A DNA stretch of 39,563 nt from a virus. Shown here in pieces: positions 6,355-27,643 of this stretch (positions are counted from its first letter, which is position 1; every line of letters begins with the position of its first letter). Below the pieces are notes generated by a model. It worked only from the letters and a program-made list of their open reading frames with translations. It was not told the DNA's origin and ran no database searches. The stretch lies in UHGV virus genome UHGV-0170560. One strand, given 5' to 3'. The translations under genes and the position numbers were made by a program.

Positions 6355-6490
6355 GGTTTGCAATTACCAAGTGGAGTGCTTATATTTACCTTTGAGGTGA
6401 ATTTACATCGCACTCCTCTTATGCCATAGTAATCGGGCACTGGCAAAATCCAGTGCCGGGATTGGCGTCCCGGGTTACTAAGTGGCGCAT

Positions 6491-6514
6491 ACCACGCCAG
6501 ACGTGGTTTTTTTA
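6491..6514 (+). terminator. Rho-independent terminator-like hairpin
   Basis: Stem ACCACG/CGTGGT with loop CCAGA followed by TTTTTTT. Confidence 0.6.
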
Positions 6515-6669
6515 TGCGTTAAGCACAGCTATATCCGAATTATGGTGGGCTGGGCAGGGGTCCGAAAGGACGCCGGTACCACTTAGGCCGGTACGCCAAC
6601 CTTGTCCAGTTCACCACCAGTAATTGGCGTTGCGGTGGTGATTAAAATCACTAAGTGGAGATAACCACC

Positions 6670-22703: not shown

Positions 22704-22996
22704 TCCTGTTCACTGGCCTCTTTGGCCATCTTCAAATACTGTTCAGGGCAATGCGCCATAACGCGCTGAAACAGTTCCAGCGCCAGATTGCGTTGCCCCT
22801 CATTAAATGCCATTGCCATAGCGTCCATCGGCGAGATAGCGGAAAACACACGGCCTTTCTCCAGCACCGACCAGACAACGCGACGCCCCTGTTCACTGCT
22901 CATGACAAAGCGAATGTCATCAATTTCACGCTGCGCCATGTCACGTTGCTTACGGGCGTTTTCTTCTTTCAGATGATCGTCTTCGTAATCTGTCAT
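22700..22996 (-). CDS. Hypothetical protein between portal and scaffold
   Basis: 98-aa ORF, overlap coupling at both ends. Confidence 0.5.
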   Translation of the reverse strand: MTDYEDDHLKEENARKQRDMAQREIDDIRFVMSSEQGRRVVWSVLEKGRVFSAISPMDAMAMAFNEGQRNLALELFQRVMAHCPEQYLKMAKEASEQE

Positions 22997-24672
22997 TGTG
23001 ATTGCCCACCCTGGCCACTAACTGCATTCGCCATAGCTGACAAAACACTCGGATCCGAAGTTTTAGCTTCGCTAAGCGTCTTGGCACCCTGTGCCGCCGC
23101 CATCCCCATCGCCATCATTTGTTGCTGCTGTTGCTGCTGTGCCCGTTGCTGGCGAGCCTGCTCAACCTGTTCCTGCGGAACAATGACGGTTGGAGACACT
23201 CCGGACATATCAGCGAATGCATCGATCGCCTGATCAACGTTGAGTTTGTCGAGAGCTTCTGGTTTCGCTTGCGCAAGTTGACCAATGAAGTTGACCGTGG
23301 ACGCCAGACTGGACAAGCCGATAGACTTCTGCGCCTGAGCCATGACGGAAATGTATTCGACCTTCAGGGGCATACCTTCCATCACGTCTGGCGGTGGCGG
23401 CAGCATGTTTTTACGCACCATCATCGAGAAAGCGCGGTCAATGAGAGGATTAAGACATTCGTCGTTCAGACGCTCCAGAACCGGCCCCAACATCAGAAGT
23501 TTTTCTTCTTTCATTTCGATCACCGCTTCAACAGGCATCGAGCGGGTATTGATGTTCTGCAACATCATGAACAGATCGACAAAGTAGGCGCTGTTAATGA
23601 TTTGACGAGTGTCCTGAATGTCTGCCACCAAATCTGCTGTACTGGGGTTAACCAGATAAGCAGGCCTGAAACCATCCTGACCAGTAATCTGATCGATATA
23701 CGTGATGTCGCCAGGAAGAAGGGAGGCACGCTGATTCTTGAGGGAAGTCGGAGCAACCATCGGCGGATTGGTGGCTTTATCAATCAACTGCGACTTGCGC
23801 TTCTGGAGAAGCTGCAATGCCTTAACAGGTCCAAGCGCCAGCATACCCGGGCATGATGATCCATAAACATCTTCGCCGTTAACTTCCCAGCGCGGAGCCA
23901 TAATTGGAAACTCATCGAATCCGGACTCACGCAACAACTTGTCGTTATCGCCGCCAACCTCGTAATAAACCGATTTGAATGGCTTGTTCTTGCTATCCAG
24001 CTTCGATGTATCGCGGTCAATGTTCGGGTAAACCGAATGCATCACTTCAATCCACTTCTCGTAGGTGCCGCTTTCCCACATGCTTTTTACGGATTCGCTG
24101 ACGTTATTTAGCCCGAACTCCTGAACAAGCTGACGAACAGTCATAGAGAACTTGCGAAAACAGGTGTCCACACTGCCACGAGGTGAGTTAGCCAGGTAGT
24201 AACTGCCTATCGGGAATGGCATTGTGCGAATGATGTCCTCGTCATCCTCCAGCACTGCCATTGCACCAGTGCTGTATGTGCCGAGGCTTCCGTATAACTG
24301 CGGCAGCGACTGATAGAGATTCGACTTATTGAACATATCGTTCATGCGGTTCTGCACCGCCTCAAGCCACAACTTAACAGGGCCATAATCCATCATTTCA
24401 GGATCTGGCGTAGCCAGGCGAAACCACGGACGCGCGGGGCTTGTGATGCCTGACATCATGCCGCTGGCGAGAGTGCGCGCCGCCATAGTCCCGGTCGAAT
24501 CAATAATGCGTGTATTGCGCCGATCGTTACGGTTGACCTCAGAAGTCAGAAAGCGGGAACCACGCGGGTTGATGTAATCACTCAACTCGCGCCAGTGCGG
24601 CTCGAACGACTGACGCTCGCTTTCAAGTTGTGCGAACTGTTTGTTCAATCGCTCTTTAGTTGTTTCCGCCAT
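22993..24672 (-). CDS. Portal protein (T7 gp8-like)
   Basis: 559 aa; C-terminal Q-rich/MAMGMAAAQG region resembles the T7 gp8 C-terminus by recollection; lies after the terminase region. Confidence 0.8.
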   Translation of the reverse strand: MAETTKERLNKQFAQLESERQSFEPHWRELSDYINPRGSRFLTSEVNRNDRRNTRIIDSTGTMAARTLASGMMSGITSPARPWFRLATPDPEMMDYGPVKLWLEAVQNRMNDMFNKSNLYQSLPQLYGSLGTYSTGAMAVLEDDEDIIRTMPFPIGSYYLANSPRGSVDTCFRKFSMTVRQLVQEFGLNNVSESVKSMWESGTYEKWIEVMHSVYPNIDRDTSKLDSKNKPFKSVYYEVGGDNDKLLRESGFDEFPIMAPRWEVNGEDVYGSSCPGMLALGPVKALQLLQKRKSQLIDKATNPPMVAPTSLKNQRASLLPGDITYIDQITGQDGFRPAYLVNPSTADLVADIQDTRQIINSAYFVDLFMMLQNINTRSMPVEAVIEMKEEKLLMLGPVLERLNDECLNPLIDRAFSMMVRKNMLPPPPDVMEGMPLKVEYISVMAQAQKSIGLSSLASTVNFIGQLAQAKPEALDKLNVDQAIDAFADMSGVSPTVIVPQEQVEQARQQRAQQQQQQQMMAMGMAAAQGAKTLSEAKTSDPSVLSAMANAVSGQGGQSQ

Positions 24673-24686
24673 TTCAATGACTCCGG

Positions 24687-24893
24687 TTACTGACCAAGTA
24701 GCGTTTTACCGCTGGTATTAGCGGTTGATGTGTCGCCCTGAGAACCGGTAAGCAGCGTAGAACTACGACCAGCAGCAGCGCGACGGCGACGAGTTTCTTC
24801 GTCGCGGGCATCAACAACGGCGGCATCCTGCTCCTGTGGTGCTGCCTGAACTTCTGGTGTTGCAGGCACTGATGGTGAGCTACCCATGCACAT
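24687..24893 (-). CDS. Hypothetical small Ala/Gln-rich protein upstream of portal
   Basis: 68 aa with GGAG RBS at 9-nt spacing; preferred over the overlapping 79-aa ORF, which would need a TTG start. Confidence 0.4.
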   Translation of the reverse strand: MCMGSSPSVPATPEVQAAPQEQDAAVVDARDEETRRRRAAAGRSSTLLTGSQGDTSTANTSGKTLLGQ

Positions 24894-25320
24894 ATCAATG
24901 ACTCCGTACGCAATTAAATTATTACCAATTTAACCACATATGATTTATTTATCGTAGATAGTTGACATTTTATGCACGAATTATTACCTTTTGGGTAACC
25001 AAAGAGTTCATTCCGGTTACTAACCTGACTGGCTTGTCGTTAAATTGAACAGGTGGAGTGAGCTTTTATTTTGAGCAGTACGGCGTATGGCACATGCGCC
25101 GATAGCGGTCTGGATACGTTTAAGGGGCACCCTCCCTTGCTCGGGCAAACGAACCAGGTAGCCGGAATGTGCAAGTCGAGCGGTTTTATTCCGCGCACGG
25201 GGATTCACCATCCCGGCGATTCGGTGTGACGCCTCGGAAGAGACGAGGGTACAACGATGAGAGCATTTATGGAGCCGCGACAAAGTGTGGCGCCTTAACA
25301 GGCTAAGTGCTCTCAGCGTT

Positions 25321-25397
25321 GTGGCATTAGCTCAGTTGGACAGAGCAACCGCCTTCTAAGCGGTTGGCCGCAGGTTCGAATCCTGCATGCCACGCCA
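25321..25397 (+). tRNA. tRNA-Arg (anticodon UCU), CCA encoded
   Basis: Hand-folded cloverleaf: acceptor GTGGCAT/ATGCCAC, D-stem GCTC/GAGC, anticodon stem ACCGC/GCGGT with loop CTTCTAA, T-stem GCAGG/CCTGC with TTCGAAT loop; argU-like. Confidence 0.9.
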
Positions 25398-25439
25398 GAA
25401 TCACGCCTAAGGACCGTGATGCCAGAAGTTCAAGGGCTT

Positions 25440-25481
25440 GGCGGTGATGGTTTCCCTTGAAGGACTATCACCGCCCTTTTT
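25440..25481 (+). terminator. Terminator-like hairpin after the tRNA
   Basis: 9-bp stem GGCGGTGAT/ATCACCGCC followed by CTTTTT. Confidence 0.6.
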
Positions 25482-25559
25482 ACAGCAGGACGCCATTGCG
25501 ATGACTTCATGCTGTAAACCAGTACAGCCACGGAAGGCATAACTCATTGCTTCCAGTTC

Positions 25560-25584
25560 GCCCGGTTCGTCCGGGCATTTTTTT
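25560..25584 (+). terminator. Rho-independent terminator
   Basis: Stem GCCCGG/CCGGGC with loop TTCGT followed by a 7-T run. Confidence 0.7.
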
Positions 25585-25637
25585 GCCTGTAGGTTACCTT
25601 ACAGGTATCATCGAAATTCACATAGCAAGGAGGAATT

Positions 25638-25820
25638 ATGACTGACCAGGTTTATGATTTAACTAAAATTACCGAGATTGAACAGACTAACGATGCGCAA
25701 AGAGCAAACTTCCTTTTAGGAAGCGGATGGGTATTACTCAAGGTAACTGAAACGCAATTCCATGATAACTATGGTGCTTTAAAAGCAGACGTGGTTTTCA
25801 CATTAGGCAATCCACAGTAA
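25638..25820 (+). CDS. Hypothetical small protein (moron)
   Basis: 60 aa, AGGAGG RBS, followed by a hairpin at 25829-25851. Confidence 0.5.
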   Translation: MTDQVYDLTKITEIEQTNDAQRANFLLGSGWVLLKVTETQFHDNYGALKADVVFTLGNPQ

Positions 25821-25895: not shown

Positions 25896-26177
25896 ATGAA
25901 ATTAAAACAGAAGATCGTTAATGCCTTTGTGAATTCAACACATGAGTGGAATATGGCAATGCACAATGCCATCGAGAGAAAAGTACATGAAGGATTTAAA
26001 GATACCTTCCCAAATGGACTGAAGGATCCAGAGGAAACAGAGGAAAGAATCGAGTCCATGCGCACATTCTATTACCAGCGAATGATGAATACAGCCTCCT
26101 TGCTTCTAACAGGCTCATCGCTAATCATCGCTTTAATAGCTCTGCTTGTGGCAATGGTCTCAATCCACTATGCATAG
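25896..26177 (+). CDS. Hypothetical small C-terminally membrane-anchored protein (moron)
   Basis: 93 aa, AT-rich, C-terminal TM helix; converges on the TerL 3' end. Confidence 0.5.
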   Translation: MKLKQKIVNAFVNSTHEWNMAMHNAIERKVHEGFKDTFPNGLKDPEETEERIESMRTFYYQRMMNTASLLLTGSSLIIALIALLVAMVSIHYA

Positions 26178-27643
26178 GGGTCGTAATCTGTGACCGCTTT
26201 CCCCTGCTGGCTCTCCTGACCAAGAATGCGCAGGCGCTTCGTAACCGGGAACGCAAACGTCAGCAGTAGCGCATCGCCTTTACCCGGCGAACGCCCAAGC
26301 CGCTCCTTGATATCTTCCTTCGGTTCGATAACGATTTTACCGTCCACGCGAACTTTGTACTCTGCCGCCGACAGGTCGTCCGCTGTTTCCTGGTCATCCA
26401 GCATGCCGCCCAGCCTCAGCCATGTCTTGCATGAGTTGAACATCTCCCCACGCTTGTTAAGCATCTGCGGGTCAGTAGACGCGCCACCGAACGGAACAAG
26501 TTGCCATGTACGCCCCCAACCGTCACCGATTGACTTCAGACCGGTACCGTAACCGAAGTCGATGAACACCGCGTCAGCCTGGTACTGGTCTTCAAAGTCA
26601 GCGATACGCTTCGCCATAATCAGATCGTCGGTGGTCTTGTTACCAGTCCATAGCACCTTACTGTGCAGCCCCTGCCGCAGGTATATCACCGCGTCATCAA
26701 CGCCGGAGTATGCAGGGTCAACGCCGATTATCACCGGAGCATGTGCAACCTGCGCAGCAGTTACCACCCGTTTCATTGCCTCGTCAGTAAGTCCGGTAGG
26801 GATAAACTGCAATTCAGATGCATCCGGGAATATGCCGCGCACACGGATTTTAACGAAGTCGCTGTCTTCCCCGTAGTCATCAACCCATTTCTGCAACTGC
26901 TGTTTGTTAGTGCCTTCCACCGTCCGGCTGTCAATCTGCGCAGTTTTCCAGCGGTGTTTATATTTGCGGAAACATTCGCGGAAACGACCGGTATTACGCG
27001 TCGGGTTCCCGAACGCCACCCAGATGATTTCGGTGTCTTCGTCCGTCAGCGCACCCTCTGCTACCTCCCACACCAGATCCGCAATGTTCGACGCTTCATC
27101 GAATACCACGATGATGCGTTTGCGCTCGTTGTGTAGTCCGGCGAATGCCTCAGTGTTGTGCTCAGACCAGGGGATTGCGTCAGCTCGCCACCGCTTGTCG
27201 TGCCCAGGGTCATTGCTGTACATCGCGGTAGCGGTACAGGTAAACCAGTCTTTCGTGATAGCAAGGTTCGACCACTTGATAATTTCCGGCCAGGTCTTCG
27301 TTCGTAGCTGGTTGTCGGTGTTGGCGGTCACCACGACCTTACAATCCTCGCAAGTGGACATGCCCCAGTTGATCAGCATTGAGATGAATGCTGATTTACC
27401 AATACCGTGACCAGAAGCACGTGCCAGCATAATCGGCTGATAGCGCGTCTCTGGATTCTGCAGGTGGTCACGTATCTCTCGGAACGCATCAGCCTGCCAC
27501 TGACGTGGGCCGGTAGCATGTGCCAGTTCAGTCCCCTCTTCCCCCCACGGGAACGCATAGAGGGCATAGCCAAGCGGATCGTGAGTGAACCCTGCAATAT
27601 CCTCGATTAACTGCTCTTCAGGAGATAACGCTGTATCTGTCAC
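26168..27643 (-). CDS. Terminase large subunit
   Basis: 491 aa; Walker A-like GHGIGKS, Walker B-like IIVVFDEAS, C-terminal nuclease-type acidic motifs; ATGA-coupled to TerS. Confidence 0.85.
   Translation of the reverse strand: MTDTALSPEEQLIEDIAGFTHDPLGYALYAFPWGEEGTELAHATGPRQWQADAFREIRDHLQNPETRYQPIMLARASGHGIGKSAFISMLINWGMSTCEDCKVVVTANTDNQLRTKTWPEIIKWSNLAITKDWFTCTATAMYSNDPGHDKRWRADAIPWSEHNTEAFAGLHNERKRIIVVFDEASNIADLVWEVAEGALTDEDTEIIWVAFGNPTRNTGRFRECFRKYKHRWKTAQIDSRTVEGTNKQQLQKWVDDYGEDSDFVKIRVRGIFPDASELQFIPTGLTDEAMKRVVTAAQVAHAPVIIGVDPAYSGVDDAVIYLRQGLHSKVLWTGNKTTDDLIMAKRIADFEDQYQADAVFIDFGYGTGLKSIGDGWGRTWQLVPFGGASTDPQMLNKRGEMFNSCKTWLRLGGMLDDQETADDLSAAEYKVRVDGKIVIEPKEDIKERLGRSPGKGDALLLTFAFPVTKRLRILGQESQQGKAVTDYDPYA

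Follow-up and report, generated by a model that had tools for sequence, protein, structure and literature searches.

The DNA analysed here (the window) is the viral genome UHGV-0170560, 39,563 nt in length. It carries a tRNA island that lies between minus-strand genes, named via the annotations of phages epsilon15 and phiV10. As the first-pass annotation had pointed out, the portal and terminase ORFs are both on the minus strand and the tRNA on the plus strand. The features of the region are as follows:

22993-24672, minus strand: homologue of gp4/portal (portal/adaptor)
24687-24893, minus strand: homologue of gp3
24962-24998, plus strand: putative early promoter, with a -35 hexamer TTGACA (24962-24967), a 17-nt spacer and a weak -10 hexamer TACCTT (24985-24990)
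24984-24998, plus strand: putative operator palindrome TTACCTTTTGGGTAA, overlapping the -10 hexamer
25081-25248, plus strand: conserved 5' core (about 170 nt), defined by a 97-sequence alignment and a covariance model
25081-25085/25097-25101, plus strand: core helix P1
25110-25113/25154-25157, plus strand: core helix P2, with a variable insert
25175-25177/25215-25217, plus strand: core helix P3a
25180-25194, plus strand: core hairpin P3
25200-25203/25211-25214, plus strand: core helix P4
25232-25236/25244-25248, plus strand: core helix P5
25157-25175, plus strand: invariant 19-mer GGTAGCCGGAATGTGCAAG of the core
25090-25095/25167-25172, plus strand: candidate pseudoknot PK1 (GCACAT with ATGTGC), an invariant pairing
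25206-25209/25223-25226, plus strand: pseudoknot PK2 (CACC of the P4 loop with GGTG), identified by covariation
25252-25265/25308-25321, plus strand: long-range helix P6 (CAACGATGAGAGCA/TGCTCTCAGCGTTG), covarying in relatives and enclosing a variable insert
25321-25397, plus strand: tRNA-Arg(UCU) with encoded CCA (ARAGORN; Rfam tRNA model RF00005)
25400-25420, plus strand: trailer hairpin ATCACGCC-TAAGGAC-CGTGAT, conserved after tRNA-bearing and tRNA-less slots
25440-25481, plus strand: terminator 1 (T1), GGCGGTGATGG...CTATCACCGCC followed by T5, from the terminator scan; 3' end of the basic unit
25529-25584, plus strand: second sRNA-like module (motif conservation; terminator scan), ending in terminator 2 (T2, 25560-25584)
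26168-27643, minus strand: large terminase

The 741 bases around the island are 97-98% identical to phiV10, TL-2011b, the O157 typing phages 9 and 10 and similar Uetakeviruses, and of 5426 complete E. coli genomes 1080 contain a match to them, which in 502 extends over 80% or more of their length. The phiV10-like homology stops just past the second sRNA-like module, and the island lies at a mosaic junction. A tRNA-Arg has been annotated in some relatives of the window phage. The phiV10 RefSeq record (L137, NC_007804) contains no tRNA or RNA annotation at the island, and an ORF (PhiV10p04, 2672-2923) is called there antisense to the trailer and terminator region. Elsewhere in the window, positions 6437-6513 and 6538-6621 match isrK (67.7 bits) and the C4 antisense RNA (66 bits), with scores that in both cases exceed the Rfam gathering score; this antirepressor-control RNA pair is known from P1, P7 and Gifsy-type phages, and is also present in cdtI (L002, 277-465).

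The tRNA gene, placed at 25321-25397 (plus strand) by the first-pass annotation, was recovered both by ARAGORN, as tRNA-Arg(tct) and the only tRNA reported for the window, and by the Rfam tRNA model (73.3 bits against a gathering score of 29). Its description as an argU-like molecule with a distinct acceptor stem also holds: it is 83% identical to argU of E. coli K-12 and differs from it by compensatory changes at three acceptor-stem pairs (2-71, 4-69 and 6-67), with similar changes in the anticodon stem. The anticodon, D arm, T arm, A20 and CCA are common to both. Unlike E. coli argU, the tRNA of the window is phage-borne, and it is not an integration site here. The tRNA body used by itself as a query retrieved only generic phage tRNA-Arg matches. 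AGA makes up 7.2 per 1000 codons and 12% of the Arg codons in the 39 ORFs of the window, compared with an E. coli average of about 2 per 1000; the tRNA thus plausibly supplements decoding of this rare codon, as had been proposed.

The leader had been described as GC-rich and structured, and the 243 nt located 5' of the tRNA do contain 57.6% G+C (vs 49.1% for the window) and fold at -96.5 kcal/mol, i.e. better than shuffled sequences (z = -2.63; 2 of 200 shuffles as good). The two hairpins originally singled out (25092-25110 and 25242-25258) do not correspond to the conserved helices, which include P1 and P5. An alignment of homologues revealed invariant blocks separated by variable hairpins, with evident compensatory changes, and RNAalifold agrees with this pattern; 43 positions of the core are invariant throughout. 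When base pairs of a hand-drawn structure were counted in 97 distinct core homologues, with the 3' partners slid as a control, 96.9% of the base-pair cells were paired, compared with 27-45% in the slid controls. Both-sided changes were observed at 11 pairs (246 cells), one of which lies in PK2, where the covarying pair is CG in 76 sequences, AU in 20 and unpaired in none. PK1 may form as well; since its pairing never varies, it draws no support from covariation.

These homologues were gathered by means of the exact 19-mer GGTAGCCGGAATGTGCAAG, which biases the family towards close relatives. The 19-mer occurs in at least 159 loci. Scanning for it gave at least 120 viral contigs, and also 24 species genomes, which all belong to Enterobacterales with the exception of two probably contaminated metagenome bins. 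A covariance model made in this analysis (R1) scores the window at 158 bits, with one copy only; neither nhmmer nor R1 detected a second (putR-like) copy in the window. No Rfam 15 family matched the core, whether in the window at the gathering score, in positions 24880-25660 at E <= 10, or in 20 related loci at E <= 1. The only trace of the core in epsilon15 (L003, 2524-2630) is its first ~75 nt (P1 and the start of P2), a region for which the annotation gives an RNase III processing site on the other strand.

The earlier statement that the leader has no convincing ORF is borne out by the alignment, in which the best frame is open in 34 of the 97 homologues and the spacers vary in all residues modulo 3. 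The ORFs over the leader gave no Pfam or PHROG hits, and an 87-aa minus-strand ORF and plus-strand ORFs of 52 and 45 aa were rejected as genes, their frames not being conserved and family hits lacking. A tmRNA- or tRNA-like reading of the T-arm-like hairpins present in relatives was also discarded, as ARAGORN finds no tmRNA. Several database records (e.g. mEp460, Ayreon and Tyrion) place hypothetical proteins over the RNA.

Taken together, these data show that the 240 nt upstream of the tRNA constitute the constant part of an RNA family, i.e. a pseudoknotted core of about 170 nt plus helix P6. They argue against the suggestion that the leader is a remnant of the element that delivered the tRNA, since, within a widespread RNA family whose members are mostly tRNA-less, no other part is as strongly conserved. 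Another proposal, that the leader is co-transcribed with the tRNA, is almost certainly correct, and the leader itself is non-coding and structured. Neither Rfam 15 nor the searchable literature yielded an earlier account of the core RNA family; the tRNA had already been annotated in sister phages.

Helix P6 connects the core to the tRNA, the last G of the helix being position 1 of the tRNA. Relatives carry the compensatory variants GGGTAGCTCAC/GTGAGCTACTC and ACGAGAGCGCAC/GTGCGCTCCCG, as well as AGGAAAAGGCG/CGCCGTTTCC and CCAAAAGAGC/GCTCTTTTTG. The terminal GTTG of P6 can pair with the upstream CAAC at the base of P6; a second CAAC, located downstream at the base of the slot helix, offers an alternative partner in tRNA-less relatives, and this choice of partners might represent an alternative-structure switch. 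The boxA of nut-type (Nus-dependent) antitermination sites is a conserved, single-stranded, UGCUCUUUAACAA-like sequence, and the P6 3' strand of many members contains UGCUCUUU or UGCUCUCA. This segment is base-paired and covarying, and it has been lost in members L008 and L081 and in the P1-like members; the resemblance of UGCUCUUU to boxA is probably coincidental.

The slot that follows P6 is filled by tRNA-Arg in the window and in other Uetakeviruses, and in most relatives by an STnc100-like domain closed by GTTGTGGTG/CACCACAAC (GTGGTG...CACCAC). The slot-closing helix starts with the same GTTGTGG for either cargo. The STnc100-like domain contains a covarying loop-loop pair (GCTGAT/ATCAGC, replaced by GCTAAT/ATTAGC in L089) and scores just below the gathering score of 47 bits of the Rfam STnc100 model (RF02076) in L121 (4242-4452, 45.8 bits), and 38.4 bits in L041 (1183-1390); positions 24880-25660 of the window gave no STnc100 hit at E <= 10. 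A tRNA lies beside the core in 45 of 134 loci, as Arg(UCU) downstream of the core in the Uetakevirus type and as Ile2(CAU) upstream of it in the P1 type, and approximately 89 of the 134 have no tRNA at all. The leader is thus the most conserved portion, most relatives are tRNA-less and phage P1 carries a different tRNA upstream, all of which identifies the tRNA as variable cargo.

The basic unit extends past the leader and includes the trailer hairpin, whose pattern was found in 54 of 143 loci, and T1, whose position is occupied in relatives by a conserved GGCGG...CCGCC terminator with a T run. The scan detected two terminators after the tRNA (25440-25475 and 25560-25576, each with a T run), in agreement with the first-pass annotation. 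The median length from helix P1 to the terminator is about 400 nt in relatives. These observations show that tRNA-Arg(UCU) is an interchangeable cargo within a modular non-coding RNA of about 400 nt (about 25081-25481). Sub-modules of the element of mEp390 (L012, about 1720-1805 and 1630-1705) are 93-94% identical to sequences of unrelated phages, namely Pantoea phage PSKM, Xanthomonas phage DIBBI and several Klebsiella phages, which suggests that RNA modules are exchanged independently.

The module ending in T2 is separate from the basic unit, conserved and sRNA-like. Located 5' of T2 is the 13-mer CATTGCTTCCAGT (25545-25557), identical to a part of RyhB. This 13-mer and the terminator layout are the only features shared with RyhB, and the RyhB model (RF00057) scores 25529-25584 at 22 bits (E = 0.16), below its gathering score of 55 bits. 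Among the 159 loci, 32 that represent several genera have conserved the motif TTGCTTCCAG ahead of a terminator, whose stem varies in sequence from locus to locus but remains self-complementary throughout. The T2 module could be a phage mimic of RyhB. The RprA-like GCTGTGTGTAGTC precedes the terminator in 28-30 loci. In L011 (1631-1750), L081 (5260-5370) and about 28 further loci the element closes with GCTGTGTGTAGTCTT plus a terminator, a segment similar to the 3' portion of RprA; those of L011 and L081 score 50.2 and 37.4 bits with the Rfam RprA model, under its gathering score of 70.

Upstream of the core, the putative promoter at 24962 was read by eye; its -10 hexamer is too weak for a consensus scan. 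The operator copy that overlaps this hexamer is located about 85 nt upstream of helix P1. The palindrome TTACC-N5-GGTAA is present at 13 sites in the window, compared with 0.44 expected (6006, 6386, 7453, 24984, 25594, 28236, 28254, 32759, 32821, 35104, 35152, 35864 and 35926), and four of these (35104, 35152, 35864 and 35926) flank the repressor-homologue gene on both sides. The palindrome probably represents the binding site (operator) of the phage repressor, its copies marking several regulated promoters. The layout TTGAC(A/C)/spacer/TTACC-N5-GGTAA is kept 5' of the element in Uetakeviruses of other genera, and the annotation of epsilon15 places a repressor site in the same intergenic region. 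We infer from this arrangement that transcription of the unit depends on an early promoter under repressor control, located at about 24962-24998; such control would keep it off in the lysogen and switch it on after induction or infection.

A BLAST search with the leader alone revealed matches in three types of phages, nearly always unannotated: (i) Uetakeviruses (SPN1S, BUCT711, BUCT554, 65FD and Tyrion), (ii) lambdoid phages (cdtI, mEp460, mEp390, Ayreon, 2H10, 1720a-02, Stx2a_WGPS2 and twelve Stx2c phages) and (iii) P1-like phages (P1, P7, D6, SJ46 and RCS47). The contexts found among the 159 loci comprise 81 lambdoid loci with a CI-type repressor, 53 loci of the Uetakevirus type and 13 P1-like loci, and the element is always oriented along the early transcription unit. 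At the 81 lambdoid loci the repressor gene precedes the element in the same orientation, in most cases with its end about 100-160 nt away, and the repressors represent many immunity types (29-100% identity). The order in cdtI is cI, the cI terminator, a promoter (TTGACA-16-CATAAT), the element, the element terminator and the early-left genes; the promoter is near-consensus with an operator-like sequence, and the element begins about 45 nt past the start site. The layout of mEp390 resembles that of cdtI.

The genes downstream of the element in lambdoid phages encode DUF2303/YfdQ, a dNMP phosphatase, a recombination-associated exonuclease, a ParB-like protein and others. Among the gene clusters in the first ~2.6 kb downstream of the element at the lambdoid loci, the analysis found no N-type antiterminator. 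A paper from 2025 notes that mEp460/2H10-like phages are devoid of N, and guesses at a put-like RNA (PMC12315714). In phage P1 the core is situated between trnI and ban, within the C1-controlled ban operon. Judging from these contexts, the element most probably belongs to a repressor-controlled early unit in all three phage types.

As to function, we rank first, with somewhat less than even confidence, a cis-acting role of the core, which would target RNA polymerase in the manner of a put-like antiterminator or anti-Rho element, by analogy with HK022. The ranking reflects the circumstances, which are those in which HK022 uses put: a conserved folded RNA fronts an early transcript and is followed by an untranslated, hairpin-rich stretch with one or two terminators, and beyond these there are genes in the lambdoid phages and in P1. 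The core would fold on leaving RNA polymerase and act in cis on the elongating enzyme in the style of HK022 put RNA, rendering it resistant to pausing, Rho and intrinsic terminators. The enzyme could then cross several hundred untranslated, hairpin-rich nucleotides, among them the slot cargo (tRNA or STnc100-like domain) and the sRNA modules with their terminators, and a fraction of the polymerases would proceed beyond them, i.e. into the T2 module and small ORFs in the window, the early-left genes in lambdoid phages, and ban in P1. RNase P and 3' trimming would free the tRNA, which could then supplement AGA decoding. The T2 module is conserved and the scan found no promoter-like site between T1 and T2, which we count in favour of a need for read-through.

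Several observations weigh against such antitermination. The core has no statistically significant similarity to put, the Uetakevirus unit runs into the convergent terminase gene, and the next ORF possesses its own operator-bearing promoter-like site, so that little in the window obviously needs read-through. Moreover, the loss of all but the first ~75 nt in epsilon15 indicates that the element is dispensable there, and the fact that the terminators are conserved parts of sRNA-like modules suggests that termination at these sites is wanted.

The main rival is a stable RNA acting in trans, which we regard as possible although doubtful. The core, freed by RNase P at the tRNA 5' end or by other processing, would accumulate early in lytic growth and bind or sequester a conserved host macromolecule (e.g. 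RNA polymerase, an RNase, Hfq/ProQ, the ribosome or a defence protein), in a manner comparable to 6S, GOLLD or ROOL. The 43 positions that are invariant across unrelated phage lineages, together with the covarying pseudoknot, suggest a specific three-dimensional fold that binds a conserved partner. The Uetakevirus unit also looks self-contained (promoter, RNA and terminators), its neighbour modules resemble trans-acting RNAs (tRNA, STnc100-like, RprA-like and RyhB-like), and GOLLD and ROOL are likewise phage-borne, tRNA-associated and modular. However, in classical P1 no terminator belongs to the core, which leads directly into ban, a trans-acting RNA does not need the strict promoter-proximal, sense-strand position seen in the 81 lambdoid loci, and the GOLLD, ROOL and 6S models of Rfam show no match over the core. 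We consider it rather unlikely that the core and P6 serve as a processing scaffold, which would fold, stabilize and direct the processing of the cargo RNAs (e.g. by presenting the slot helix to RNase P or RNase E), with no effect on polymerase and no target in trans. Such a role accords with the GTTGTGG start shared by both kinds of slot helix, with the overlap between the last P6 pair and tRNA position 1, with the tRNA abutting the 5' side of the core in P1, and with the well-known examples of tRNA-linked processing, such as the T4 tRNA cluster. For a scaffold, though, neither the 43 invariant nucleotides nor the conserved pseudoknot would be required, and P1 keeps the core without a downstream cargo module. 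Most genomic copies of STnc100 also seem to lack the core, since 11 copies are reported in EDL933 (PMC5331693), whereas the element occupies a median of one place in E. coli genomes.

It is highly improbable that the region is a decaying remnant, a DNA-level site (attachment or packaging) or a missed small protein gene, despite the mosaic junction and the hypothetical proteins annotated over it in mEp460, Ayreon and Tyrion. The compensatory changes include strand-specific G-U pairs, which points to an RNA transcribed from the plus strand; in addition, no frame is conserved, the ORFs have no Pfam or PHROG hits, and the orientation relative to the early transcription unit is constant. Finally, the element may be viewed more broadly, albeit with considerable reservation, as a new class of phage RNA, a modular chassis that would combine an active or host-targeting pseudoknotted core with exchangeable cargo (a rare-codon tRNA, an STnc100-like domain, or RprA and RyhB mimics). 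Firing from early promoters under repressor control, it would reprogramme the host as lytic growth begins, and exchange of modules would have carried it through lambdoid, P1-like and epsilon15-like phages.

Should the core be an antiterminator, it would explain early-left expression in many N-less lambdoid phages, including Stx2c-converting and cdt-carrying ones, a gap already noted in the literature, and would constitute a second antitermination RNA besides put, structurally unrelated to it. Whatever its function, a strongly covarying pseudoknotted RNA of about 170 nt is unannotated in P1, in Stx phages and in approximately one fifth of complete E. coli genomes, and spurious ORF calls routinely take its place. 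The way in which the cargo is arranged suggests that tRNAs and mimics of host sRNAs are combined by temperate phages into one early RNA unit, a matter of relevance to how phages control translation, stress and iron regulation in the host. The STnc100-like slot domain, in turn, ties a known prophage sRNA to a larger element.

Among the systems to which the element may be compared, P1 trnI is, like the tRNA of the window, a phage tRNA for a rare codon placed in the untranslated leader of a regulated operon, and the same is true of the tRNAs ileZ-argN-argO of the Stx phage 933W; the rare codons served by these tRNAs are AGA/AGG and AUA. The tRNA of the window is nested in a defined structured RNA family, whereas the tRNAs of 933W and P1 have not been described in this way. 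GOLLD and ROOL are large, ornate, modular RNAs of phages and prophages, often located beside a tRNA and sometimes containing one, and their function is unknown. In contrast, the RNA of the window is smaller (about 400 nt), belongs to temperate phages of enterobacteria and occupies a fixed promoter-proximal position.

STnc100 is an expressed, multi-copy prophage sRNA of unknown function (PMC5331693; bioRxiv 10.64898/2026.05.13.724894), copies of which are reported downstream of stx2 (PMC12370729), and the related PasD is reported near Q and LpxR (bioRxiv 10.64898/2026.05.13.724894). The supplement of the Pas sRNA preprint contains none of the sequences of the window. STnc100/PasD (RF02076; prophage-encoded and Hfq-associated) resembles the slot domain of the relatives, with a score just under the threshold, and both occur in lambdoid prophages of Enterobacteriaceae. 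The element differs in that the slot of the window holds a tRNA, the 5' core lies outside the STnc100 model, and the genomic context is not the same.

The put RNA sits just downstream of PL (PMC9378689). As judged by the features that define put homology (two stem-loops, a 5' triplex strand, U28, G35 and A64), the core has no counterpart of G35 or of the 5' triplex strand, Smith-Waterman comparison of the two gave z <= 2 against shuffles, and the put regions of HK022 and HK639 were matched neither by nhmmer nor by R1. A 5-bp hairpin (CGGCG/CGUCG, the P1 stem) and the 9-mer CAUGCGUCG are common to the core and putL, although not significantly so, and membership of the put family was rejected. 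The put RNA is also shorter (~70 nt, with two stem-loops) than the core, which comprises ~170 nt, at least five helices and a pseudoknot and is accompanied by further modules; unlike put, the core has no second copy and is present in P1 and Uetakeviruses as well. In HK022 itself, a T-rich stretch that looks terminator-like by eye lies between putL and nun. HK022-type put acts in cis, by binding the zinc-binding domain of the RNA polymerase beta' subunit, and causes read-through of terminators. Like the put RNAs of HK022 and HK639, the core is positioned just downstream of PL, past the repressor gene, in lambdoid phages devoid of N, and has no evident dedicated protein partner; as shown by the layouts of cdtI and mEp390, it lies near an early promoter and ahead of the early genes of an N-less phage, i.e. 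in the location typical of put.
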